This document shows, in pieces, positions 13,323 to 34,978 of a stretch of 64,000 nt of DNA. The position numbers and the translations under genes were made by a program. Origin of the DNA: a virus; IMG/VR virus record IMGVR_UViG_3300018916_000001, positions 32,001-96,000 of that record, one strand, 5' to 3'. The notes beneath the pieces were generated by a model. The model searched no databases and had not been told where the DNA came from. It saw nothing but the letters and a program-made list of their open reading frames with translations. Each line of letters opens with the position of its first letter. Position 1 is the first letter of the stretch.

Positions 13323-13586
13323 TTAGTTATTTTGAGTTTGATTGCAAAGAAAGTCTCTTATTTTATCTAACTTTATTACTCCTCTATGATATAAATGTTC
13401 AGCTATTTCAGCAAATTCACTAGCAGTACAAAATAATTCTTGATGTCGTTCATTAGTTAAAGTTAAATGAGCTTCATCTTTAATTGTTTCTCCTTCTACT
13501 ACTTTTACAGTTAAGCAGCAATTAGCAATAGTGGTACAAGCAGTTACTAATTCTTGTCCGTTTACTTTTTTCTTAGTTATTGTCAT
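13323..13586 (-). CDS. Hypothetical protein, divergent from TerL
   Basis: 87-aa ORF with ATG start. Confidence 0.65.
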   Translation of the reverse strand: MTITKKKVNGQELVTACTTIANCCLTVKVVEGETIKDEAHLTLTNERHQELFCTASEFAEIAEHLYHRGVIKLDKIRDFLCNQTQNN

Positions 13587-13628
13587 GTTTTTATACTATT
13601 ATATAGGTACTTCATATTATATATCAAA

Positions 13629-15218
13629 ATGTCAAAGAAAAAGAATGAGCAGTTAAGTAAAATAGACCAAGAAATAGAATTTCTACTTAATCAACAAAAA
13701 TATATCAATGCTTCTAATTCTCTATATGATTTTCTTAAAGTTGGATTTGATCATGTAGAAACTAATGATTTTAGAGATAGTCGTTTAGCAGGAGCTTTAT
13801 GCGAGCATTTAGAAGCAATAATGAATGGACAGATTAAAAGATTAATTATCAATATTAGTCCAAGAACTATGAAGACTCTATTAACCGGAGTTTATTTTCC
13901 TGCTTATTGGTGGTTAAAGAAACCTCATCTTAAGTTTATTTATTGTAGTTATACGGTTGGTATTGCTCGTAAATGCTCTGAACAGTTTAGAAAATTAGTT
14001 CAACATGATTATTACTCTTTAGTTCAAAATACTATGGAGAGTTATATGGATACTCCTATTAGTTTTACTGGTTATAAAAATACACAAGATTTAATCGTAA
14101 ATAACTATGGAGGTGAGAGAGTTACTGTAGGTATCGGAGGTAGTATCACTGGTATTGGAGCAGATGTAATTATCTTAGATGATCCTTTAAAAGCTAAAGA
14201 TGCGTATAGCAAAATACAAAAAGCTCATGTTAACAACTTCATTCAAGGTACATTAATCAATCGTTTAAATAAGACCAGTGAAGAAAAAGTAGTTATATTA
14301 ATTCAGCAAAGATTAGCAGAAGATGATGCTTCAGGGTTTTTAAGAGAACAAGGTAGCTATGATATTTTAGAATTACCACTTTTATTTACTGGTCTTTCTA
14401 ATAGTAAGACTCAACTAGATTTTAGAGATTGGAGAAAGAAACCTGGTGAGATCCTGATCCCAGAACTTATGACTTTGGAAGATGTAGCTAGTCTAGAAAA
14501 TCAGATGGGAGCTATTGAGTTTGAACGTCAATGTCAGCAGAATATTAAAGGTGCAGCGGGAAATATTGTCTCTAGTAAGTATTTCAAAGAATATCAAAAT
14601 GCTCCTCCTTACGAACAATATATCTTGGCAGGTGACTTAGCTGAATCAGTGGAAGACCAAGCTTGTTATACCGGATTAGTAATCTTTGGTGTATATGAAA
14701 ATAAGTATTATGTAGTAGATATAGTAGAGAAAAAATTAGGTTTTGATGATTTAATTATTGAAGTGAAAAATCTACTAAATAAATATCCTTGTGCTTATAA
14801 AATCATAGAGAAGAAAAGTGTCGGCCCTGCTCTTATCAATGTTTTATCTAAAGAAATTCCGGGTTTTATTGCATTAGAGCCTAGAGAATATGGAACAGAT
14901 AAAGAAAGTCGATTGAAAGCTAGTATTCCTGCGTTTATGTCAGGTAAAATATATTTCCCTACTAAAGAGGCTTGTGAGAAAATAGTAACTCTAAAAGATC
15001 AGTTGGTAACTTTTCCATTATGTAGAAATGATGATGTTATGGATGCTTTTTGCTATGGAGTTCTATGGTTAGAAAGAAATAGTAGAGTAGTTAGTAGCTC
15101 AGAAATACTTCAAGTTCCATCTGAATATATAAAACAAAGAAGGAACATCTTTATTGATACTCCTTCTCCTAATCAAATATTTGGTTCTACTAATACTTCT
15201 ACTAGATTTAGATTTTAA
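13629..15218 (+). CDS. terL: Terminase large subunit
   Basis: LIINISPRTMKT Walker A, GGSITGIGADVIILDDP Walker B, IQQRLAEDD, RNase H-like AGD..IEKK..NDDVMDA; ATG at 13629. Confidence 0.93.
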   Translation: MSKKKNEQLSKIDQEIEFLLNQQKYINASNSLYDFLKVGFDHVETNDFRDSRLAGALCEHLEAIMNGQIKRLIINISPRTMKTLLTGVYFPAYWWLKKPHLKFIYCSYTVGIARKCSEQFRKLVQHDYYSLVQNTMESYMDTPISFTGYKNTQDLIVNNYGGERVTVGIGGSITGIGADVIILDDPLKAKDAYSKIQKAHVNNFIQGTLINRLNKTSEEKVVILIQQRLAEDDASGFLREQGSYDILELPLLFTGLSNSKTQLDFRDWRKKPGEILIPELMTLEDVASLENQMGAIEFERQCQQNIKGAAGNIVSSKYFKEYQNAPPYEQYILAGDLAESVEDQACYTGLVIFGVYENKYYVVDIVEKKLGFDDLIIEVKNLLNKYPCAYKIIEKKSVGPALINVLSKEIPGFIALEPREYGTDKESRLKASIPAFMSGKIYFPTKEACEKIVTLKDQLVTFPLCRNDDVMDAFCYGVLWLERNSRVVSSSEILQVPSEYIKQRRNIFIDTPSPNQIFGSTNTSTRFRF

Positions 15219-20479: not shown

Positions 20480-20719
20480 ATGTCAAAAAGTAAATTATTA
20501 TTACAAAAAGCTACTAGAGCTGCTGGAATGGCTGGAGCTGGAGCTGGTGCTGGGTGGGGTGTAGGTTATGCGGTTGGTGGAAATAACACTAAAGTTCCAA
20601 TGCTAGTTAAAGGTAAACTTAAAACTAAGACAAAGAAAGCCCCTACTATTCAAAGAGCTGCTGCTATTGGAGGATTATTGACTGGAGCAAGTGTAGGATT
20701 ATTAAAGAAAAAACTATGA
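20480..20719 (+). CDS. Small basic glycine-zipper protein
   Basis: AAGMAGAGAGAGWGVGYAVGG and AAAIGGLLTGASVGLL with Lys-rich ends. Confidence 0.7.
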   Translation: MSKSKLLLQKATRAAGMAGAGAGAGWGVGYAVGGNNTKVPMLVKGKLKTKTKKAPTIQRAAAIGGLLTGASVGLLKKKL

Positions 20720-21651
20720 CAATTATACATTTTAATACTATACCTACTCCATTAAAAGAAGTAGAAAATGACGACCCTAACTCACTAACTAAAGAAGGAT
20801 TAATATTCTACTCTACTTTAGAAAATACTCCTCATATAGATAGTAGAAAGAAATCACATAACTTTCCACCAGATAAGATTTATCAGTTAGTAGAAAATAC
20901 TAATAAACATTTTGATATGTCTGAAGTTGGTATTCCTGTACTTACTGAACATAAAAAAGATGTAGGAAATGTTGTAGGTTTTATTGAATCTCCTGTAGAA
21001 GCTAAAGTAATAGACGAATCTTATACTAAAGGAAATCCTAAGTTAAAACATTTACTAGGAAGAGTAGGAGTATTCGTTAAAGATGTAGTTATCAAAACTC
21101 CTGAAATTATTGATAGGATGAAGAGAGGTTTAGCTAAAACAGTATCGGCAGGAATTGATTTAGATTCTTTTTCTATTAAAGAACTTTCTCTTGTTGCTTT
21201 ACCTGCTATACCTAATGCTACACTTTATAGTTATCATAAAGATAAATCAACTCCAAACATGAAAAAAATAAAAAATAAAAATCTACTAATTGCTAAAGGT
21301 GTTACTAATGAAAGTAACTATTCATTATCTATAGAAGAAGCACTTAATTCTGCTCAAACTCTAGAAGAACAAAGGGCAGAAGCTCAGAAAGTTTTTGATG
21401 CTTTTCTAGAAGTAATAGAAAATGCAAATGAAATGGACGAAGAAGAAATGGCTTCTATGGGAATTCAAGATCCTTCAGAAATTATTCAATCTGCTGTAGA
21501 AGATTTAGGAATGAGATTAACAGAAATGTTCTTAACTCCTCCTGAACCTGTAGAACCTCAAGCTCCGGTAGCTCCTATGGCAAAACCTGGTATTGGTATG
21601 AAAACTAGAACATATAAATTTTCTCCTGAATTAATTCAATTTACAAAATAA
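20716..21651 (+). CDS. Prohead maturation protease
   Basis: PVLTEH, VVGFI, TVSAG (Ser), ELSLVALPAIPNA; upstream of scaffold and capsid. Confidence 0.8.
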   Translation: MTIIHFNTIPTPLKEVENDDPNSLTKEGLIFYSTLENTPHIDSRKKSHNFPPDKIYQLVENTNKHFDMSEVGIPVLTEHKKDVGNVVGFIESPVEAKVIDESYTKGNPKLKHLLGRVGVFVKDVVIKTPEIIDRMKRGLAKTVSAGIDLDSFSIKELSLVALPAIPNATLYSYHKDKSTPNMKKIKNKNLLIAKGVTNESNYSLSIEEALNSAQTLEEQRAEAQKVFDAFLEVIENANEMDEEEMASMGIQDPSEIIQSAVEDLGMRLTEMFLTPPEPVEPQAPVAPMAKPGIGMKTRTYKFSPELIQFTK

Positions 21652-23886: not shown

Positions 23887-25053
23887 ATGTCACACGTTGC
23901 TACATTTTTCAATGAACGGTTTATCTCCAAGCAAGTAATGGCTATGGTAGATGAAACTGAACAAAATTTAATTAAAAGAAGTAAGTTAATCGACCCGTAC
24001 TTCCCTACTCAAATGTTTGATAGTAGAGACTTTGTAGGTCTATTGACTAAACGGGTTGCTCCTGCTGCATCTATCGTTGCGTATGGCGCTGAAATTCCAT
24101 TGGTTAACTTTGGTGGAATTGAACGTATGGCAGCTACATTATTCAAGTTGGGTACTTCACGTCTCTATGATGAAGAAACTCAATGGAAAATGATTGAAGC
24201 TCAAAATATGGCAATTGCTAAAGGTATTAGAGTTCAACGAGTTTATAACCCTGATGGAACCGTAACTCCTGGGGCAGATGCAGACTTGGCACGAGCTTTA
24301 TTTGGAGTAGTTGAAGATTTACTTAAAGGTATTACTGATCGGATGGATCACATGAAGTGGCAGGTAGCTTCTACTGGCGCTATTGATATGAAAGATCCTA
24401 AGACTGGTGCATTAGTACAACTAGATTTTAAAAAGCCAGGTGTAAATTACAATCACTTCCCAGCTCCTTTGACTCAAACTGGTAATACTGTCACTCCTAC
24501 TCAAAACAAATGGACTGATCATGAAAATGCTCGTGGCCTTGAGAATCTTAGTGATGCGGTAGAAACTTATTATGATACTAACGGTTATGCCCCGGATAAG
24601 ATTGTAATGAGTCGTAAGTGTTGGAGAGATTTCTTACATCAGAAGAGTACAAGAGATGCTGCCCGTCAATTGACTACTACTGAATTAGGTTTAGTCTCTG
24701 CTGATATGGGTAAAAAACTATTAGAAGCTCGTGATATTCCTGAAGTAGTCACATTTGAAGAAAAATATCAAGAACAATTACCTGATGGTTCTATAGTAGA
24801 TGTTAACTTCTTAAATAACAATCGAATTGTGTTTCTGAAGAATAATATGGGTATTAGTGCTATCGGCCCAACTATTGAGTCTGTTAAGGAAGTTGTTGGT
24901 GGTGGAGATACTAAGATTGAACCTAAATCAGGTATTTATGTTAGTACCTACGAAGAAAACAAACATCCTGTACATGACGTATCAATGGCGACTGCTACAT
25001 TTGTACCTATTGTAATGAATCCTAAGCAACTATTCTCTTGGCAGGTACGATAA
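23887..25053 (+). CDS. Major capsid protein (lambda gpE-like HK97 fold)
   Basis: 388 aa; APAASIVAYGAEIP, WQVASTGAI, PDKIVMS, ATATFVPIVMNP. Confidence 0.85.
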   Translation: MSHVATFFNERFISKQVMAMVDETEQNLIKRSKLIDPYFPTQMFDSRDFVGLLTKRVAPAASIVAYGAEIPLVNFGGIERMAATLFKLGTSRLYDEETQWKMIEAQNMAIAKGIRVQRVYNPDGTVTPGADADLARALFGVVEDLLKGITDRMDHMKWQVASTGAIDMKDPKTGALVQLDFKKPGVNYNHFPAPLTQTGNTVTPTQNKWTDHENARGLENLSDAVETYYDTNGYAPDKIVMSRKCWRDFLHQKSTRDAARQLTTTELGLVSADMGKKLLEARDIPEVVTFEEKYQEQLPDGSIVDVNFLNNNRIVFLKNNMGISAIGPTIESVKEVVGGGDTKIEPKSGIYVSTYEENKHPVHDVSMATATFVPIVMNPKQLFSWQVR

Positions 25054-25579: not shown

Positions 25580-26005
25580 ATGCTCATTCAATCAAAAATC
25601 ACAAGTCTTCAAGTAGTAAGAGATTGTACTAAAGAAAAACCTCAGATATATTTGAGAAATTCTAAACATTCTATAAGAGATACTATTCCTGTTGTATTAG
25701 ATATAGCGTCTAGTGAACCTATCAAGTTAAATAATATAGGATTAGCATTTAAGTTATATCATCAATTGAGTGGAATATTACTTAAGCAATATGATACTAA
25801 TAGCTTTGTGTTTCCTATAGTAGAAATGAATTCTATTAGAGCTATTCTCTATATAAATGGGATAGATATAAAAACCTTCTATCAAAATAAGAGTTTAGAG
25901 TTTCCTAATAAACTTCAAGGTATTAGCTACTCACTAGATATATCAGTTAAAACTACTCAAAATATTTCAAATTATACAGACTCAGGAGAATTTTATGTCT
26001 ATTAA
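25580..26005 (+). CDS. Hypothetical virion-module protein (beta-sandwich-like)
   Basis: Location; C-terminal DSGEFYVY. Confidence 0.6.
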   Translation: MLIQSKITSLQVVRDCTKEKPQIYLRNSKHSIRDTIPVVLDIASSEPIKLNNIGLAFKLYHQLSGILLKQYDTNSFVFPIVEMNSIRAILYINGIDIKTFYQNKSLEFPNKLQGISYSLDISVKTTQNISNYTDSGEFYVY

Positions 26006-26405
26006 GTTTATAGGGTCTGTTAATACTAGCTACAAAAGAGGTAAAGATAAGACTAAACGTAAAAGTCGAGGTTTACTAACTGCTGCTGGTTTAGGTGTTA
26101 TTGGTACAGTAGCTGGAAGTAGTTTAGCTCAAAGCGGACTAATAGTAGATAAGCTTAAAAAAGTAGGTAGCAAATCCGGCTATAAGTTCAATATACTAGA
26201 TAAGACAATGGCTCATGGTTTTGGACAATATATAGTTAAAAATATGCACGATAACCCAGAAAAATCAAAAGTAATTACGAAACAACTAAAAGTTCTTAAT
26301 AAAGCTAAATTACGTGGAGGAATTAAAGGTGCTGCAATTGGTGCTGGTATAGGTTTAGGAAGTACATATCTAATAAATAAATTAAGAAATAAGGATAAAA
26401 ATTAA
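25995..26405 (+). CDS. Basic glycine-zipper protein (putative capsid cargo)
   Basis: MSIKFIGSVNTSY|KRGKDKTKRKSR; two GxxxG helices. Confidence 0.75.
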   Translation: MSIKFIGSVNTSYKRGKDKTKRKSRGLLTAAGLGVIGTVAGSSLAQSGLIVDKLKKVGSKSGYKFNILDKTMAHGFGQYIVKNMHDNPEKSKVITKQLKVLNKAKLRGGIKGAAIGAGIGLGSTYLINKLRNKDKN

Positions 26406-26815: not shown

Positions 26816-27298
26816 ATGATTTATTTCGGGATGAATAGTATAAGTCTTAGAGCTGTTACAAAACTATTTAATAAAAAAGATAAAGATAAGGATAAAAACT
26901 TTAAATCTAAAAAAATGTTAATACCCAAAAAAGTTCTCTATAATTTTGACTTTACTAATAATATTGAATTTGGCAGAAATAAAGGTTCTAAAGATAAAAG
27001 AAAGAGAATAGTTAAAAATAATTCTAGTGCAGAAGGTCAAGCACCCTTACTTCCTATAGGTCAAGAACGTACTGGTCATAAATATTATCAGAAACGTAGA
27101 GCATTAGCTTATGTAGGAGGTGCAACTCTTGGCGGAGGAATTATAGGTGGTCTTATTGGTGGAAAATTTAGAACTAATAAAGCTGTTAATACAGGTATTC
27201 TATTAGGTAGCGTTTTAACAGGAGGTAGCGTTTTACTAGATCATGCAAAAAATAAATATAGCCCATTTTATCAAAAAAACTTATTTAAAAAGAAATAA
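26816..27298 (+). CDS. Basic glycine-zipper protein (putative capsid cargo)
   Basis: MIYFG..., NNIEF|GRNKGSKDKRKR, VGGATLGGGIIGGLIGG. Confidence 0.7.
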   Translation: MIYFGMNSISLRAVTKLFNKKDKDKDKNFKSKKMLIPKKVLYNFDFTNNIEFGRNKGSKDKRKRIVKNNSSAEGQAPLLPIGQERTGHKYYQKRRALAYVGGATLGGGIIGGLIGGKFRTNKAVNTGILLGSVLTGGSVLLDHAKNKYSPFYQKNLFKKK

Positions 27299-27300
27299 TT

Positions 27301-28065
27301 ATGACTAAGACTAAACTTAAGATTATTAATAGAACTCCATTAAAAAGTAGAGCTATACCATTTATTGAGTTACAACCACGTTATCTCTATTGGTTAGATA
27401 CTAATACTGAAATTGATGTAGAAATTATACGAGAGAAAGACGCTCATTATGAAGTTAAGCTATATACTAACTTTCCTGATTCACCTGTAGGTATTAGAAC
27501 TTGGTTTATCTATAAGGAACACGTAGAAGTAATAGAAGACAAAAAGAAATCTAGTAAGAATATACTTAAGACTGATTATTATTATCAACTAGACAATAAT
27601 TATCATCCTTATACATCTTGCTTTTTAACTTGTGTAGCAATGCTCTTATCTTTCTATAAGGTGAAGGTAACGCCAGATGAACTATATAATAAATGTCTAG
27701 ATTTAGGATACGACAGGTTTTCTCACCAAGATATTGTAGCTATCCTTAAAATCTATGGAGTTAATTATTATGCTACTACTTCTGGTACTTTTGAAGAGTT
27801 AAAAAAAGTATTACAAACTGCTCCAGTAATTATTGGTACTTATCTCACTGAAGCTAGTCATATTGTATTAGCAGTTGGCTATGATGACTCTGCTTATGAT
27901 GGGCGAGGTGCAATTATAGCTAACGATCCTTATGGAGAATTTACTCATAACGGTTATATACATACTCCTACAGCAGGGAAAGGTACTTTATACTCTTATT
28001 CTCTAATGGCTCAGGTAGCTGCACCAGAAGGTAATGGAAATTATTGGTTACATTTACCGGAATAA
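27301..28065 (+). CDS. C39-like cysteine peptidase with cyanobacterial-type N-terminal SH3-like domain; probable endolysin
   Basis: YYQLDN..SCFLTCVAM (Cys), SHIVLAVGYD (His), NDPYG (Asp); N-terminal LKIINRTPLK..HYEV..WFIYKEHVEV. Confidence 0.75.
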   Translation: MTKTKLKIINRTPLKSRAIPFIELQPRYLYWLDTNTEIDVEIIREKDAHYEVKLYTNFPDSPVGIRTWFIYKEHVEVIEDKKKSSKNILKTDYYYQLDNNYHPYTSCFLTCVAMLLSFYKVKVTPDELYNKCLDLGYDRFSHQDIVAILKIYGVNYYATTSGTFEELKKVLQTAPVIIGTYLTEASHIVLAVGYDDSAYDGRGAIIANDPYGEFTHNGYIHTPTAGKGTLYSYSLMAQVAAPEGNGNYWLHLPE

Positions 28066-28069
28066 AACA

Positions 28070-28357
28070 ATGAAACACAAAATGAAGCGTTCTCTATATT
28101 TCACTAAAACATTTTTATTTTCTCTTTTACTTTATTTATCTGTTATCTATACTCCATTAATTAACTTCGCTTATGAACATAAATTGAGTAGAGGAGATTT
28201 AGAAGCTATAGTTATAGGTACTTTTAGTTTCTTAGGAGTTAGTAATGGTAGGTTGAGAGTTAACGAAGATATTAGAAAAAGTGCTGAAACGGGAGAACCT
28301 GTAGGATTACTTACAACTAAAGTAGTTCCTAGTAAGAGAAAAGAAGAAGAGGTATAA
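28070..28357 (+). CDS. Holin-like two-TM membrane protein
   Basis: Two hydrophobic helices and charged tail, directly after the peptidase; ATG at 28070 preferred. Confidence 0.55.
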   Translation: MKHKMKRSLYFTKTFLFSLLLYLSVIYTPLINFAYEHKLSRGDLEAIVIGTFSFLGVSNGRLRVNEDIRKSAETGEPVGLLTTKVVPSKRKEEEV

Positions 28358-28361
28358 GTTA

Positions 28362-29906
28362 ATGGTTATATTTAGTCTATTACTTGAAAAAGTTGAAGAT
28401 GATTATTACTATCGATATATTAGCGACAACATTACTTATTACATACCTTCATACAAAACTGATAGACTGAATAAACCTATTAGCGAATTTGAGTCTTTTG
28501 AAGATTATACAAGCATCTCTGAATTTTTAAATAGAGTATATAACGAAAATGAGTATAGCGAAGATTATGTAGTAAAAGAAGCTAAAGATACAAAAGAAAT
28601 ATCTATAACAATAATGGGGTATAAATATAAAAACTTCATTGTTCTTATAGGAAGTCAAAAATCAGATATTTTACTAGAAGAAACTTTATTTAAAGAAGAC
28701 TATATATTTCTAGTTAGATGGGTAGGTAATAAAGAAGATTTAATAGATGATATATCAGATAATGTAGTTAATCTTTTAGGATATAGCAAACAAGAAATAC
28801 TATCTAAACCTTATATAGATTTTTTACATCCTGATGATATTGACTTATTTAATCAAGAGTTAACTGAACATATAAAAGAAAATACTGCTTCTTTCTATCA
28901 AAGATATAGATTATTAGCTAAATCTGGAAAAGCTATCACTATTCTCGATCATTCATGTCAGATCTTTAAAGGAAATACTAAGACTATCATTGGTTATCTA
29001 AGAGATATCACTGTAGAAACTCAAATCTCTACTCAATTGAAAGAACTTATTAACTTAGATGAAGAAGATTTTAATAGTAGTCTTCTAATTAAGATTGAAT
29101 GGGATTCTGAATATCGAATAGTTCGTTGGAATACTGAAGCTCAAGATTTAATTGGTTGGGGTCACGAAATTCTTGGTAAAAGTATTAGAGAACTCAACTT
29201 ATTTTCTGATGCAGATTCTATTAAGATGCAAGGTCAATTTAAAAGATTATTTGCAAGAGAAGTAGATAACGTAATTAGTAGTTTTAGAATTCAAAAGAAA
29301 GAAGGAGGATTTATAGATACTAAATGGTCTAATCGTTTAATTACTAGAGAAGGTAAATTGAGAGTTGTATCTTCCGTCATAGATAAAAGTCAAGAAACTC
29401 TATTAACTACTCGCTTAGATGAGATGGAAGGTCGTTCTGACTTACTTCTAAAAACTCTAGAAAATACTCATTTATCTAATGATGTCTTTACTAAATTAAT
29501 GCACAATCCTCTCACTGGAAATCCTGAAGGACTTATTAAAGCTGAGATTATCATTAGAAAATTAGAAGAAGAGATTACTAGATTGAATAATACGATTTTC
29601 TACAATAACGATAATAATTTGATGAGTGACATTGCTTTCTTAAAGAATGAGGAACGTGTACTAAAAGATAAAATTAATAAAGTAGAAGAAAGTAATAAAA
29701 AGTTATCTGAACAGTTAGATGATTTATTAAACGTAAATATATTAACTCTATTTAAGAATTTAGATTTTAAAAAAGTTGTAGCAATAATTATATCGGGTTA
29801 TTTAATATTCGGTCAGTTTGTACCTGCTCTATATCCAAGATTAGTTAAACCTTTATTCCAAGAATATAATCGAGAAATGAAAGAGATTGAAGGTGATAAA
29901 AAATAA
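28362..29906 (+). CDS. PAS-PAS-coiled-coil-TM protein without an output domain
   Basis: ISDNVVNLLGYS..FLHPDD..YRLLAKSG..RDIT; IEWDSEYRIVRWN..IGW..LGK..KWSN; C-terminal VVAIIISGYLIFGQFVPALY. Confidence 0.85.
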   Translation: MVIFSLLLEKVEDDYYYRYISDNITYYIPSYKTDRLNKPISEFESFEDYTSISEFLNRVYNENEYSEDYVVKEAKDTKEISITIMGYKYKNFIVLIGSQKSDILLEETLFKEDYIFLVRWVGNKEDLIDDISDNVVNLLGYSKQEILSKPYIDFLHPDDIDLFNQELTEHIKENTASFYQRYRLLAKSGKAITILDHSCQIFKGNTKTIIGYLRDITVETQISTQLKELINLDEEDFNSSLLIKIEWDSEYRIVRWNTEAQDLIGWGHEILGKSIRELNLFSDADSIKMQGQFKRLFAREVDNVISSFRIQKKEGGFIDTKWSNRLITREGKLRVVSSVIDKSQETLLTTRLDEMEGRSDLLLKTLENTHLSNDVFTKLMHNPLTGNPEGLIKAEIIIRKLEEEITRLNNTIFYNNDNNLMSDIAFLKNEERVLKDKINKVEESNKKLSEQLDDLLNVNILTLFKNLDFKKVVAIIISGYLIFGQFVPALYPRLVKPLFQEYNREMKEIEGDKK

Positions 29907-30121
29907 TGCAACTTAAATTTTTAGGTAATATAGAATTTAGTAAAACTAATGCTGAAGGTAGAAAACGTTATAAAAGAAAATCTAAAGTCAATAATCCAAA
30001 TAATGAACTTCTAATACGTAAAGATAGAAGAGATGGTTTCAAAACTAAAATTAAAACTGTAGAAGAAGGTAGAAAATGGATAAATACTTTCCTAAATTTA
30101 AAGAGATATTTTAATAATTAA
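29906..30121 (+). CDS. Small basic protein with the shared leader
   Basis: MQLKFLGNIEF|SK. Confidence 0.7.
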   Translation: MQLKFLGNIEFSKTNAEGRKRYKRKSKVNNPNNELLIRKDRRDGFKTKIKTVEEGRKWINTFLNLKRYFNN

Positions 30122-30733: not shown

Positions 30734-31042
30734 ATGAAATTTTTAGGTCAAATAGAATTTAGTAAAAAAGTAAAGAAAAGTCAAATGTGGAGTCCTGAAG
30801 TAGCTAAGACTAATCTAGCTATTACTACAGGTTTAGGTGGAGGTATTGGGTATCTAGAAGGAATGAAATCAAATTCTAGAAAAGGAATGCTAACTAATAA
30901 TCCCGTTAGAGCTATTAGTGGTAAAGGTTGGAAACGTAAACTTGTAGGAGCAACATTAGGTGCAGGATTATCTGCTGGAGTGGGTTATGCAATTTATAAA
31001 AACAACCCGTATAGTCCTATAGGTAAAAAGAAAAATAAGTAA
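30734..31042 (+). CDS. Basic glycine-zipper protein (putative capsid cargo)
   Basis: MKFLGQIEF|SK; GLGGGIGYLEG; VGATLGAGLSAGVGY. Confidence 0.75.
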   Translation: MKFLGQIEFSKKVKKSQMWSPEVAKTNLAITTGLGGGIGYLEGMKSNSRKGMLTNNPVRAISGKGWKRKLVGATLGAGLSAGVGYAIYKNNPYSPIGKKKNK

Positions 31043-31377
31043 TGATACGATTTCTAGGTCAATACACGGAATTTTCAAACTCTTTTACTAAGAATATGAT
31101 TAGAGAAAATGACAGATCTCTAACAAATGTTAATGGTAAGAAAGTAAATCTAAGTCACTTAGGTCTAATGAGTGCGTTAGGTGCTTATGGTGGATATGAG
31201 TCTGGCAAACTAGGTAATATGTTAAAAACCAAAAAGAATATAGCTGGTAAAGGTCTTAAAGCTAAGGTAATAGGTACTGCTCTAGGAACTGGATTAACTG
31301 GTGGGCTTAGCTATTATTTACAAACTAGAGATAGAGATGGACGTTCAGATAAAGGTAAAAAGAGGATTAATAAATGA
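31042..31377 (+). CDS. Basic glycine-zipper protein (putative capsid cargo)
   Basis: MIRFLGQYTEF|SN; paralog of 30734 (IAGKGLKAKVIGTALG vs ISGKGWKRKLVGATLG). Confidence 0.75.
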   Translation: MIRFLGQYTEFSNSFTKNMIRENDRSLTNVNGKKVNLSHLGLMSALGAYGGYESGKLGNMLKTKKNIAGKGLKAKVIGTALGTGLTGGLSYYLQTRDRDGRSDKGKKRINK

Positions 31378-31865
31378 GTAGTATATATTTTGTTGGCTCT
31401 ACTAATACTGAATATGGTAGAGGAAAAGATAAAACTAAACGTAAAAGCCGTATTGGAAAGATTACTGGTGCTGCGGGTGGCCTAGCTACAGGTTTATTAG
31501 CTGGAAAAACCTTAACCAGTGGAGCAGTAGGAGCTTTAGCTGGTGCAGGAGCAGGAATGTTAGTAGATAAAGACATAGACAGAGAGAAGAAAAGATTTGA
31601 AAAAACAAAACGACCTCTTAGTTTGAATGGGAAAGTTAATAATGACTTTATTAGTGGAACAAAAGCTTTAGGTACTACTGGAGTGGGTTTAGGTGGATTA
31701 GGTGGTGGACTTATAGGTAAAGGTCTAAAAAATAAAGCTAAGTTAGCATTGATGGGGGCCGCTCTTGGAGGTGTTGGAGGAGCTGGAATTGGTGGATTAG
31801 GAGGAATAGCGAGTGGAGCAATCAGAGCTAAACTACAACCCAATAGTAAGAAAAAGAAAAAATAA
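31374..31865 (+). CDS. Basic glycine-zipper protein (putative capsid cargo)
   Basis: MSSIYFVGSTNTEY|GRGKDKTKRKSR; four Gly-zipper segments. Confidence 0.75.
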   Translation: MSSIYFVGSTNTEYGRGKDKTKRKSRIGKITGAAGGLATGLLAGKTLTSGAVGALAGAGAGMLVDKDIDREKKRFEKTKRPLSLNGKVNNDFISGTKALGTTGVGLGGLGGGLIGKGLKNKAKLALMGAALGGVGGAGIGGLGGIASGAIRAKLQPNSKKKKK

Positions 31866-32239
31866 TGAATATAGGTCGTGGTAAAGACAAGAAGAAAAGA
31901 AAAAGTAGATTACTACAACTAGGTACTAAAGCTTTAGCTGTTATAACTGCGGGAAATCCTATAGACCGAGAAACTGTTAGATATAATAAGCAAGGCCCTA
32001 GAACTAGATTAGGTAAGATTGGTCATGACGCTGTAATTGGTGCAAATACTTTAGGTACTGGTAGCGCGTTTAGCGGATTAGTAGAAGGATTTACTAGAGG
32101 TAAGAATATCAAAAGTAAGTTATATCTAGGACTTTCTAAAGGAGCTAAAGAAGGTATTAGAGGAACGCTTTCTGGTGCAGGTATTGGAAGTACAATAGGA
32201 ATTACTAGAGGATTATTTCAACCTAATAAAAAGAAATGA
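31865..32239 (+). CDS. Basic glycine-zipper protein
   Basis: MNIGRGKDKKKRKSR; GTLSGAGIGSTIG. Confidence 0.7.
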   Translation: MNIGRGKDKKKRKSRLLQLGTKALAVITAGNPIDRETVRYNKQGPRTRLGKIGHDAVIGANTLGTGSAFSGLVEGFTRGKNIKSKLYLGLSKGAKEGIRGTLSGAGIGSTIGITRGLFQPNKKK

Positions 32240-32571
32240 GTAAACCTAAATGTAAATATAGAACAAGATTTAATACTTGGAAAAGAAGTAGAGAAGCTTC
32301 TGAAGTTAGTAGAAGTCTTATAAGAAAAGCACTTTATCTATGTCCTATTTGTAGAAATCCATTATCTCTAGGAGAAGGTCACTTATTCCACATAATACCT
32401 ATTAAACTACTATCTCAAAATAATTGTATGAGTTTAGTATCTAGCGAATATAATCTACTATATTCTTGTAAAAAGTGCAATTTAAAGCAGAGAAGTGAGA
32501 TATATACTGAATGTCTAGAAGATAATTTATTGAATATATGGAAAAAGATAACTAATGAAGTTTCTAGCTGA
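32236..32571 (+). CDS. HNH endonuclease-like protein
   Basis: CPIC..HLFHIIP..NLLYSCKKCN. Confidence 0.75.
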   Translation: MSKPKCKYRTRFNTWKRSREASEVSRSLIRKALYLCPICRNPLSLGEGHLFHIIPIKLLSQNNCMSLVSSEYNLLYSCKKCNLKQRSEIYTECLEDNLLNIWKKITNEVSS

Positions 32572-33556
32572 ATTTAAAAAAACTAAAGAAGAAAAGAAGA
32601 GAAATCTCACTAAAGGTATTGTTTATTTGGGTAGTGCGGGTTATACAGGTCAACAAACTATTAGATCAGGTATTCCTCGTTTATTAGGAGTACGATTAGA
32701 ATCTCATAGTACAAGTAATAAAAATGCAAAAGAAATACTAAAAAATGGTGGAATATTAGATCCAAATAAAAGTGGTTCAGGAGCTATTAGAGCATTGGAA
32801 GCTAATGAAGGGTCTTTAGCGGGATTTAAACCTTCAGATGCAAAAGGTAAAATTTATATTACTGGTATTCATCAAAATGCAAACTCTAGAACATTAAATG
32901 GAGTAAAAGTTGATCCTAAAAATGAAGATGTTTTAACTCAAGTTCTAAATAGAAAAGATCAGAGAATGGGTTATCGTGGACAATCTAGTATTAATTGGAA
33001 TGAAGTAAATAAAGATAGAGATAAAATAGCTCAACTAATAAAAGATTTTGATAACTCTACTGATTTAGATGAAAAGCTTGTCAAGAGCAAAGAAATAGGA
33101 AAATTAAAACAAGAAACATCTCTAAGAACTACTCAAGCTAGAGGAAAAGCTGCTATTAAAGCTCTTTTACCTACTACTGGTCGAAGTCTTTATATTGGTG
33201 GTAGTGACGAATATTTTAATAAGAACTTTAAACCTGATTTTGATGATGTTCGTGCTATGTACTCTGAAAATAAAATTAAAGTACATGGGAACAGAGCAGC
33301 AGCTACATTAGACGCACTTAAAAGAGAAGGTAATGGAAGTAGATTAAAAGGTGTTGCTAAATTAATTCAAGCTAATCCTAAAAGAGCATTGGCAGGACTA
33401 GCTATATTAGGTATTGGAGGAGGTCTTACAGCTAACTCAGCTAAAGTTGCTTATGAAAATCTAGCTCCAAGTGACGGTAAAGTAAAAAGTCATACTAGAA
33501 AAAATAAATCTGGTAAATGGTCAAATGTCAAATCTTTTGTAAGAGATAAAAAATGA
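32555..33556 (+). CDS. Leader + ADP-ribosyltransferase-like domain + Gly-rich TM + basic motif (putative capsid cargo)
   Basis: MKFLAEF|K; HSTSNKNAKEILKNGGILDP...GKIYIT; ALAGLAILGIGGGL; VKSHTRKNKSGKWSNVKSFVR. Confidence 0.55.
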   Translation: MKFLAEFKKTKEEKKRNLTKGIVYLGSAGYTGQQTIRSGIPRLLGVRLESHSTSNKNAKEILKNGGILDPNKSGSGAIRALEANEGSLAGFKPSDAKGKIYITGIHQNANSRTLNGVKVDPKNEDVLTQVLNRKDQRMGYRGQSSINWNEVNKDRDKIAQLIKDFDNSTDLDEKLVKSKEIGKLKQETSLRTTQARGKAAIKALLPTTGRSLYIGGSDEYFNKNFKPDFDDVRAMYSENKIKVHGNRAAATLDALKREGNGSRLKGVAKLIQANPKRALAGLAILGIGGGLTANSAKVAYENLAPSDGKVKSHTRKNKSGKWSNVKSFVRDKK

Positions 33557-34150: not shown

Positions 34151-34978
34151 ATGGCAGATAATAAAAGTCCCGCTCAAGCTACAAATTTACTGAACTTCTT
34201 AAAAGGTTTAGTCGTTACATCTCCGATTAATAATAACGTTTTCATTGGTTTATCTACTACTCTTCCAACTGCGGAAGGTGGTAATTTTACTGAACCTGCT
34301 GGATCTACGGGTTATGCAAAAGTTCAATATGCAACTGGTGTATCAAACTTCTCAGAACCTAATAAGCGCTCATGTTTCAATCAACAAGAAGTGAAGTTTA
34401 ATGTTGCTCTTACCCAATATCCTACTGTAGTTGCTGTAGGTATATTTGATGAGACTAGCGATACCGTTCCTCTTTATTTCGGTTCTATTGATTTAGGTCG
34501 AAGTATTGAAACTGGTGATAGAGTATATTTCCCACCTCAAGGAATCATCATTCATGAAGTTCAACCGACGTTTACTAAATCTGATTATTTAGCAAATGCA
34601 CAATTGAAACTCTTACGTAATGAGACATTTGAAACTCCGTCTGAGATTTATTTGGCTCTTGGTACAATGACTCCTACGATGACTGGAGATATTGGTGAAT
34701 TGACTAATACTAACTCCCCTGGCTATGTCCGAATTCCTATTCCTTGTAATGCAGCGAATTGGCAAGTTACTGGACGAACTGCGACTAATCTTATGGAATT
34801 AGTATTTCCAATGGCAACTGCACCTTGGGAGAATATTAAATCCTTCGCTCTACATAGAAGTGCTACTGGTAATACAGATATGCTCTATTGTGGAAGTTTT
34901 GGAGAGAACAACACTAAAGTTATTTACCTCAAAGATAAATTACGGATTCCAGTAGGCGCAATTACAGTTTCAGAATAA
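34151..34978 (+). CDS. Virion structural protein with two tandem repeated domains (minor tail/fibre-type)
   Basis: FIGLST..EPAGSTGYA..F..A..VGIFD repeated as YLALGT..ELT..PGYVR..F..A..FALH. Confidence 0.7.
   Translation: MADNKSPAQATNLLNFLKGLVVTSPINNNVFIGLSTTLPTAEGGNFTEPAGSTGYAKVQYATGVSNFSEPNKRSCFNQQEVKFNVALTQYPTVVAVGIFDETSDTVPLYFGSIDLGRSIETGDRVYFPPQGIIIHEVQPTFTKSDYLANAQLKLLRNETFETPSEIYLALGTMTPTMTGDIGELTNTNSPGYVRIPIPCNAANWQVTGRTATNLMELVFPMATAPWENIKSFALHRSATGNTDMLYCGSFGENNTKVIYLKDKLRIPVGAITVSE

Follow-up and report, generated by a model that had tools for sequence, protein, structure and literature searches.

A putative lysis cassette with a tail-anchored PAS-domain protein in an uncultured, probably cyanobacterial phage

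In the late-gene region of an uncultured virus, three adjoining genes appear to form a lysis cassette in which a candidate endolysin and a holin-like protein are followed by a membrane-anchored protein with PAS domains. The genes lie in a 64,000-nucleotide (nt) stretch of DNA (hereafter the window), which corresponds to bases 32001–96000 of the 151,199-bp IMG/VR virus record IMGVR_UViG_3300018916_000001. A role of the 514-amino-acid (aa) PAS protein as a regulator of lysis timing is the single most likely reading of its position and architecture, although a tentative and unproven one; that the protein also responds to a signal is ranked as less likely than the timing role itself and is regarded here as doubtful. 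An earlier note on this DNA, made from its letters only, had proposed signal-gated lysis, in which a holin or antiholin would be controlled by the metabolic or redox state of a photosynthetic host. The candidate endolysin and the holin-like neighbour speak for the lysis premise of this proposal, whereas the PAS protein is linked to them only by adjacency and no evidence of sensing was found.

The three-gene block and its conservation

The block is composed of the following genes:

27301–28065, + strand: candidate endolysin, 254 aa, with an all-beta N-terminal domain (residues ~1–80) and a C39_2 papain-like cysteine peptidase domain (residues ~90–250)
28070–28357, + strand: holin-like protein, 95 aa, recognised by hydropathy, ortholog alignment and a dual-start motif
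28362–29906, + strand: tail-anchored PAS protein, 514 aa, recognised by its AlphaFold2 (AF2) model and by Foldseek matches to tandem PAS structures

These three co-oriented open reading frames (ORFs), separated by gaps of 4 nt each (28066–28069 and 28358–28361), are as the earlier note had described them, and the PAS gene ends in a stop codon that shares bases with the following ATG (TAATG at 29904–29908). The block sits within a long run of late genes on the + strand. Its surroundings follow a fixed order in 14 loci (capsid, HHH protein, p141, p133, peptidase, holin-like gene, PAS gene, p195); in all of them the PAS gene is directly 3' of the holin-like gene with the same 4-nt spacing, even where capsid identity has fallen to 55%. 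The late-operon position of the PAS gene, preceding lysis, was counted in favour of a lysis role. In Pseudanabaena phage PA-SR01, homologs of the flanking capsid and p195 genes are present with two small genes between them and none of the three cassette genes; the block is therefore an accessory insertion relative to PA-SR01 and not core structure, and for this reason its site inside a structural operon is not in itself an objection. The lysis genes of phage P2 also lie inside a structural operon, between head and tail genes. Additionally, the N-terminal leader common to the adjacent glycine-zipper paralogs (described below) is absent from the peptidase, the holin-like protein and the PAS protein.

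The peptidase as candidate endolysin

The first protein had been called a C39-like peptidase, and this assignment is firmly upheld. It matches Pfam Peptidase_C39_2 (PF13529) at 55.8 bits (E 1e-14; gathering cut-off 24 bits) over profile positions 2–143 of 143, a genome-wide Pfam search recovers the same gene at 57.6 bits, and phrog_10051 ('endolysin') is matched at E 5e-19. Cys107, His187 and Asp209 are invariant in 17 orthologs and align with TNTC, SGH and NDP of P0067, the nearest outside relative, and the AF2 model has a papain-like fold that matches C39 structures, while a sequence search of the PDB gave no match. No signal peptide, transmembrane (TM) segment or other hydrophobic segment was detected by hydropathy. 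Relatives of the peptidase were found in 40 of 50,697 phage records; all 40 are cyanophages, of quite different types, and several of the proteins are annotated as endolysin or C39 peptidase. The domain is fused to different wall-directed partners in these phages: P0067 combines a GH24 lysozyme, PG_binding_1 and C39_2, ORF088 of Acaryochloris phage A-HIS1 joins C39_2 to GH19, and gp098 of cyanophage PSS2 joins a glucosaminidase to C39_2. Peptidase_C39_2 is among the catalogued endolysin domains (PMC5017753).

A search of the 151-kb genome for 12 other wall-hydrolase Pfam families, which did detect the C39_2 gene, gave no match apart from a stop-containing SLT fragment whose score of 12.5 bits is insignificant. 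The peptidase gene thus stands as the sole or main wall-hydrolase gene recovered, and it is followed by a holin-like gene 4 nt downstream. Judged from these features, the 254-aa protein is very probably the endolysin of the phage, cytoplasmic and signal-less, and its Cys-His-Asp peptidase would cut the peptide stems or cross-links of peptidoglycan.

The all-beta N-terminal domain is common to the window peptidase and to that of Microcoleus phage My-WqHQDG. An SH3b domain was considered for it and not called (no SH3 Pfam match, and a weak Foldseek SH3 match at E 0.07). In two unrelated cyanophages, Arthronema virus TR020 (L008) and cyanophage PSS2 (L010), the C39_2 gene is also located just downstream of the major capsid gene. 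Among the related loci, the peptidase is 82–86% identical in those with a capsid of 55–58% identity (L002, L003, L019, L021, L023) and 70–74% identical in those with a capsid of 78–79% identity (L015, L017, L018, L022); this discordance suggests that the region around p133 and the peptidase gene has undergone mosaic exchange.

The two-TM protein as candidate holin

The 95-aa protein had been read as a two-TM protein, which agrees with its hydropathy: one strong hydrophobic segment at residues ~13–34 and a weaker second one at ~44–60, followed by a charged tail. The tail is conserved, with 13 of its 35 residues charged, and the N-terminus is rich in lysine. Two in-frame ATGs occur at 28070 and 28082, and in related loci the two are spaced by four to five codons and have lysines in between. 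The resulting dual-start motif M-K-x-K-M-K-R-S (MKHKMKRS, MKNKMKRS or MKSKMKRS) is found in 10 of the 13 related loci (the window at 28070–28093, L005, L013–L017, L019, L021 and L022), and the second methionine is replaced by isoleucine in L018 and L002. A longer form with extra lysines, produced from the first start, would act like an intrinsic antiholin. Small size, two TM segments and a charged tail constitute the layout of a class II holin, and the positive-inside rule predicts an N-in/C-in topology; on this layout the protein is probably a class II-type holin, with somewhat less assurance than attaches to the endolysin. A comparable pair was observed in Microcoleus phage My-WqHQDG, where a two-TM ORF of 106 aa (P0069) comes immediately after a peptidase of 37% identity; the similarity of P0069 to the holin-like protein is weak (hhalign probability 23%, first TM segment only).

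Domains of the PAS protein

The segments of the third protein are:

28362–28661, + strand: N-terminal domain, residues 1–100, a Tyr-rich five-stranded sheet with one helix, PAS-like in the AF2 model
28707–29009, + strand: PAS-A, residues 116–216, PAS_3 type (Pfam PAS_3 at residues 130–206, 60.8 bits, E 1.5e-16)
29082–29384, + strand: PAS-B, residues 241–341 (AF2 predicted local distance difference test, pLDDT, 83–91; matched by Foldseek to PAS-A/PAS-B of FixL; weak Pfam PAS_4 match, E 0.008)
29493–29621, + strand: best-conserved segment, residues 378–420, KLxHNPLTxNPEGLIKAEIIIRKLEEEITRLNNTIFYNN
29622–29741, + strand: coiled-coil-like helix, residues 421–460 (AF2 helix 420–456; only generic coiled-coil Pfam matches)
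29772–29837, + strand: single C-terminal TM segment, residues ~471–492, followed by a 22-aa charged tail (Kyte-Doolittle value of about 2.07–2.08 at residue 472 in a 19-residue window; AF2 helix 469–511)

In the AF2 model (mean pLDDT 69) the strands and helices at residues 116–215 and 243–341 constitute tandem PAS domains, and Foldseek matched them to the tandem PAS of FixL (E 2e-14, TM-score 0.72) as well as to DosP and MmoS. Two clear PAS domains and possibly a degenerate third had been proposed; the two were recovered, PAS-A by Pfam and PAS-B by AF2 and Foldseek, whereas the third gains no support, as the N-terminal domain has no Pfam match and its alignment with the triple PAS of PpsR covers 383 columns with a root-mean-square deviation of ~25 and a TM-score of 0.19–0.25. 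The solved sequences nearest to PAS-A are the PAS domains of ARNT, PER and HIF. A D196-H197-x-C199 motif is invariant in a beta strand of PAS-A (28947–28958), together with an invariant S177-F-Y-Q-x-Y stretch; it could be a ligand or metal site, and it matches no known cofactor motif. The LOV motif GxNCRFLQ, with its adduct cysteine, is absent throughout a 26-sequence alignment, in line with the earlier remark on NCRFLQ.

Downstream of the PAS domains, long helices extend across residues 342–456 in the model, and these helices together with hydropathy agree with the coiled coil and single C-terminal TM segment described before. Conservation is concentrated in this region: mean pairwise column identity is 0.83 at residues 378–420, with a peak of 0.96 at 389–404, compared with 0.60 in the PAS domains, and residues 378–420 are presumed to be an effector or interaction helix. 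No kinase, GGDEF or helix-turn-helix (HTH) domain was found by Pfam, as had also been observed earlier, and any output of the protein must therefore go through protein or membrane contacts.

A phage-only family and its C-terminal module

The PAS family comprises 33 protein clusters (that of the window included), 52–100% identical, all of 513–520 aa and carried on contigs of up to 151 kb; 11 loci with the protein are present in IMG/VR. No relative was found in 185,579 bacterial and archaeal species, nor was any tblastn match found in phage isolates, and within the reach of these searches the PAS protein is a phage-only family. As those species lack any relative, the protein does not represent a host sensor acquired recently.

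A profile of the C-terminal 175 residues, compared with 1.84 billion representative proteins, retrieved only two outside relatives: P0070 (391 aa), with two PAS domains, and P0071 (257 aa), with one. Both share with the window protein the NxPLT motif, the helix, the coiled coil and the C-terminal TM segment. Because the number of PAS domains varies while this module stays, the helix/coiled-coil/TM module appears to be the constant unit. Neither Pfam nor PHROG has a family for it; widening the alignment for a word-based search yielded no further members, scans of IMG/VR with P0070 and P0071 and of JGI metagenomes with P0071 yielded no relatives, and the ESM Atlas returned no usable match. The module is a new, conserved one without family assignment. 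P0070 lies on an ENA contig of 1859 bases (L011), followed by a multi-TM ORF (P0073), and P0071 on a JGI contig of 2927 bases (L012), beside a PDDEXK nuclease gene on the opposite strand.

Does the PAS protein time lysis?

While domain content, topology features, synteny and fusion partners were observed directly, we infer every activity, the contact with the holin and any sensing from them. The proposed mechanism would be as follows. Together the three genes would make up a late cassette for lysis that has been inserted into the head/neck module. The PAS protein would be tail-anchored in the cytoplasmic membrane with its PAS-like, PAS-A and PAS-B domains facing the cytoplasm, would dimerise, probably through the coiled coil, and would modulate the time of holin triggering via the nearly invariant juxtamembrane helix and the TM segment, its activity being governed by the PAS domains according to ligand, redox state or bound partner. 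In the most specific version, the protein would read the energy, redox or ligand state of the cyanobacterium and hold back or release the holin, for example in lysis by day versus night; we consider this version open to serious doubt.

Several observations weigh against a role in lysis timing. The link between the PAS gene and lysis is an adjacency conserved in one clade only, so that the synteny is inherited and does not represent independent recurrence; a direct connection between the PAS protein and the action of the holin is not supported. The expected synteny of such genes with endolysin and holin genes was thus found in the 14 loci of this clade but not beyond it, as the short contigs of P0070 and P0071 (1.9 and 2.9 kb) carry no visible lysis gene, and no PAS gene follows the peptidase and two-TM pair of phage My-WqHQDG. 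Within the clade, a glycine-zipper gene separates the peptidase from the holin-like gene in L002, and the distance-matrix (mirror-tree style) correlation between the PAS and holin-like proteins (r 0.71) is no higher than with other genes. The holin assignment has its own weaknesses: the second TM segment is short and weakly hydrophobic, and the protein has no Pfam or PHROG family even at E 5–10. A regular-expression lipobox scan of the genome ORFs, a weak negative, found no spanin-like lipoprotein, and the PAS protein does not resemble a spanin since its TM segment is C-terminal and it has no N-terminal signal. The cassette is also located among putative head-cargo genes of the head/neck module. 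Cofactor or redox sensing, which the earlier note had favoured, finds no support either, since no flavin, haem or LOV signature was found and PAS-A is nearest to cofactor-less PAS domains of the ARNT/PER type. A complex prediction between the C-terminal module and the holin-like protein gave a score of 0.00 and, being run without controls, speaks neither for nor against binding. No paper linking PAS domains to phage lysis or to cyanophages was found in the open literature.

Other functions were considered for the PAS protein. It might act outside lysis, as a late membrane-tethered sensor or decoy on host physiology that tethers a host protein or forms mixed dimers with host PAS kinases. PAS heterodimers are common (the Foldseek matches include HIF-ARNT, CLOCK-BMAL1 and PpsR), the invariant helix could bind any partner, phages often put accessory genes between modules, and P0070 and P0071 were not seen beside lysis genes. 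Host-takeover genes, however, are usually early and do not reside in a late structural operon, the 4-nt gap to the holin-like gene is kept in every locus, and, with no relative in the bacterial and archaeal species searched, the protein is not a host sensor of recent capture; we consider this function unlikely. A rather more improbable alternative is a lysis accessory devoid of sensing (an antiholin, a holin chaperone, a raft organiser or an XhlA-like helper), in which the PAS domains would serve for dimerisation or as a scaffold. The affinity of PAS-A to ARNT, PER and HIF domains, which make mainly protein–protein contacts, is in its favour, as are the missing cofactor motif, the lower conservation of the PAS domains relative to the juxtamembrane helix and the variation in PAS count (1, 2 or 3) over three family branches in which the helix, coiled coil and TM segment are constant. 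Nevertheless, ~340 residues of folded PAS structure are under purifying selection in every ortholog, which would be costly for a spacer, and polar residues (D196, H197, C199, Y179 and Q180) are invariant in the PAS-A sheet.

The whole block might also serve in entry or in assembly. Ranked below the non-sensing accessory is the possibility that the three proteins are virion cargo, carried in the head and ejected when a cell is infected, with the peptidase breaching the wall and the membrane proteins aiding DNA passage. This would suit the position of the genes between capsid and neck genes, interleaved with leader-tagged glycine-zipper paralogs, the C39_2 genes just downstream of the capsid gene in TR020 and PSS2, and the failure of the 12-family genome search to reveal another wall hydrolase for entry. 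It is countered by the missing N-terminal leader on all three proteins, by A-HIS1, where virion annotations are given to the neighbouring ORF089 and ORF093 but not to the C39_2 protein, and by the T4-like phage S-CREM1, whose C39_2 'lysozyme' adjoins ribonucleotide reductase genes; moreover, lysis genes inside structural operons have the precedent of P2, and PAS domains are not known in ejected proteins. The least likely proposal, which we regard as highly improbable, is that the peptidase is not a lysin and instead removes the leaders of the glycine-zipper paralogs, in the way that C39 peptidases cleave bacteriocin leaders. Its structural matches do include the double-glycine peptidases PCAT1 and ComA, Pfam Peptidase_C39 is matched at 25.6 bits, and the gene lies among leader-tagged small glycine-rich proteins. 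A bacteriocin-processing C39 of the PCAT/ComA type (PF03412) was nevertheless rejected, as the protein is standalone without an ABC domain and the neighbouring leaders have no double-glycine site. In addition, a separate prohead protease candidate is encoded at 20716–21651, and the fusion partners of the peptidase relatives comprise glycosidases of three kinds and a peptidoglycan-binding domain, and these relatives occur in cyanophages of quite different types. Lysis timing by the PAS protein remains the preferred, if tentative, reading.

Genome setting, host and neighbouring genes

The record has a GC content of 31%, and its first 127 bases recur at its end, so that the assembly is terminally redundant or circular. 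Contigs of the PAS-gene clade of 140–151 kb are consistent with a complete genome of ~151 kb, and the locus is also carried near one end of two JGI contigs of 308 and 325 kb. Related contigs originate from several metagenomes of freshwater type. Besides the cassette, the late run includes:

13554–15218, + strand: large terminase (phrog_38, E 9e-75)
same late run, + strand: portal-sized ORF, 1082 aa
20716–21651, + strand: candidate prohead protease (39% identity over 137 residues, E 3e-22, to a PA-SR01 ORF noted as 'Mu-like prophage I protein')
23887–25053, + strand: major capsid protein (phrog_29, E 3e-28)
29906–30121, + strand: very basic 71-aa protein that starts with an ATG overlapping the stop codon of the PAS gene, has the leader of the glycine-zipper paralogs (MQLKFLGNIEFS) and occurs in roughly half of the related loci
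34151–34978, + strand: Gp80 fibre-domain protein, 275 aa (PF23140 'Podophage GP4 fiber I protein gp80', E about 5e-35 (4.6e-35); phrog_240 'head protein')
further along the run, + strand: Neck1/tail-completion protein (phrog_26)
further along the run, + strand: 3220-aa ORF with a weak match (22% over ~360 residues, E 3.5e-6) to the protein annotated as tape measure in Pseudanabaena phage PA-SR01

No Pfam match was found for the ORF at 20716–21651, and its true start may lie upstream, as its relatives are 403–422 aa long. The isolates with the nearest capsid protein are Pseudanabaena phages PA-SR01 and Pam2 (31% identity). Taken together, the virus is probably an uncultured, long-tailed phage with a tape-measure gene and a cyanobacterial host. 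The photosynthetic host assumed in the earlier note is plausible as a cyanobacterium, given the 40 of 40 peptidase-relative records from cyanophages and the Pseudanabaena affinity of the capsid, but psbA was not found in the 151-kb genome, and the host is therefore deduced from the distribution of homologs only. Promoter and terminator scans gave counts no higher than in shuffled sequence.

Basic glycine-zipper paralogs surround the cassette (25995–26405, 26816–27298, 29906–30121, 30734–32239 and 32555–33556, and 9016–9714 in L002); they share a short N-terminal leader (MKFLGQIEFS and similar), and their number and position differ among related phages. A Gly-zipper_Omp match (E 4.5e-4) was obtained for 31374–31865. 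A Cys-rich 111-aa 'HNH-like' ORF (32236–32571; Pfam HNH, E 0.002) occupies an equivalent position in 11 of 14 related loci, with 69–91% identity, and its retention there marks it as a conserved part of the module and not a free homing endonuclease. The 34151–34978 protein is located between the glycine-zipper block and the neck genes, in the same phage that has the 3220-aa tape-measure-like ORF.

Significance

The timing of lysis decides phage fitness and is thought to be set mostly by holin-intrinsic clocks; few regulators couple it to signals, the classic case being T4 lysis inhibition. Cyanophage infection depends strongly on light and host energy. To our knowledge, no phage-encoded sensor that acts on lysis has been described. 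A PAS-coupled regulator would supply a mechanism that is concrete and open to test. If the PAS protein does sense the state of the host and gate the holin, it would be the first lysis clock to devote a cytoplasmic domain to sensing, and a family of the form PAS(n)-NxPLT-helix-TM would be founded by it. A timing role would make the protein a new variant among known lysis regulators, with a C-terminal module that represents a new family. Such a regulator would also constitute a compact natural switch that unites a sensor, a helix and a membrane anchor and lacks enzymatic output. Should the PAS part prove unrelated to lysis, a likely endolysin and holin are still identified for a widespread uncultured clade of 140–150-kb phages and a new conserved C-terminal module is defined.

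Comparison with known systems

The tandem-PAS modules of FixL, DosP, MmoS and PpsR share the fold and the PAS-helix-PAS arrangement of the window protein (Foldseek E 1e-11 to 2e-14). The PAS protein differs from them in that it has no kinase, phosphodiesterase or HTH output and no haem or FAD signature, and in that it is tail-anchored and phage-only. The peptidase has the same C39_2 domain as A-HIS1 ORF088, PSS2 gp098, S-CREM1 gp9 ('lysozyme') and phrog_10051, all from phages of cyanobacteria, with 25–37% identity and the same catalytic residues; unlike the cyanophage C39_2 lysins, it carries no glycosidase domain and has instead the all-beta N-terminal domain of an unnamed family. The holin-like protein resembles S68/S71 of lambdoid phage 21 and S105/S107 of lambda in its small size, N-in layout of two TM segments, charged tail and adjoining endolysin gene, and also in the two methionine codons a few codons apart with lysines between them. 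It departs from known class II holins by the lack of a sequence family match, the weak second TM segment, the order endolysin–holin and an unusually conserved tail.

The PAS protein had been described as laid out like an XhlA-type lysis protein. XhlA of the Bacillus prophage PBSX likewise has a cytoplasmic coiled coil followed by a C-terminal TM segment and a gene beside holin and lysin genes, whereas the PAS protein is about six times larger, carries three PAS or PAS-like domains and belongs to a phage whose host is probably of the Gram-negative type. Membership in the XhlA family (PF10779) was rejected: the window protein has no match at E 10, and its ortholog P0023 reaches only 11.1 bits (E 0.46) against a cut-off of 34.7. 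As the matches are far below threshold, the PAS protein resembles XhlA in layout without belonging to its family. Sub-threshold matches to 'hemolysin' families were obtained for the C-terminal module of P0023 (PF10779, E 0.46), for P0001 (phrog_1193, E 0.48) and for P0071 (phrog_937, E 0.44), and apart from these the module matched no PHROG of the lysis category at E 5. The whole PAS protein matched no PHROG family at E 0.01, and so showed no homology to RI and RIII of T4 or LydB of P1; we know of no described antiholin with cytoplasmic PAS domains. In function, RI, RIII and LydB would nevertheless be the closest counterparts of the role proposed here, as they are likewise accessory proteins that set the time of holin triggering, and RI of T4 couples lysis to an external signal, that of superinfection.

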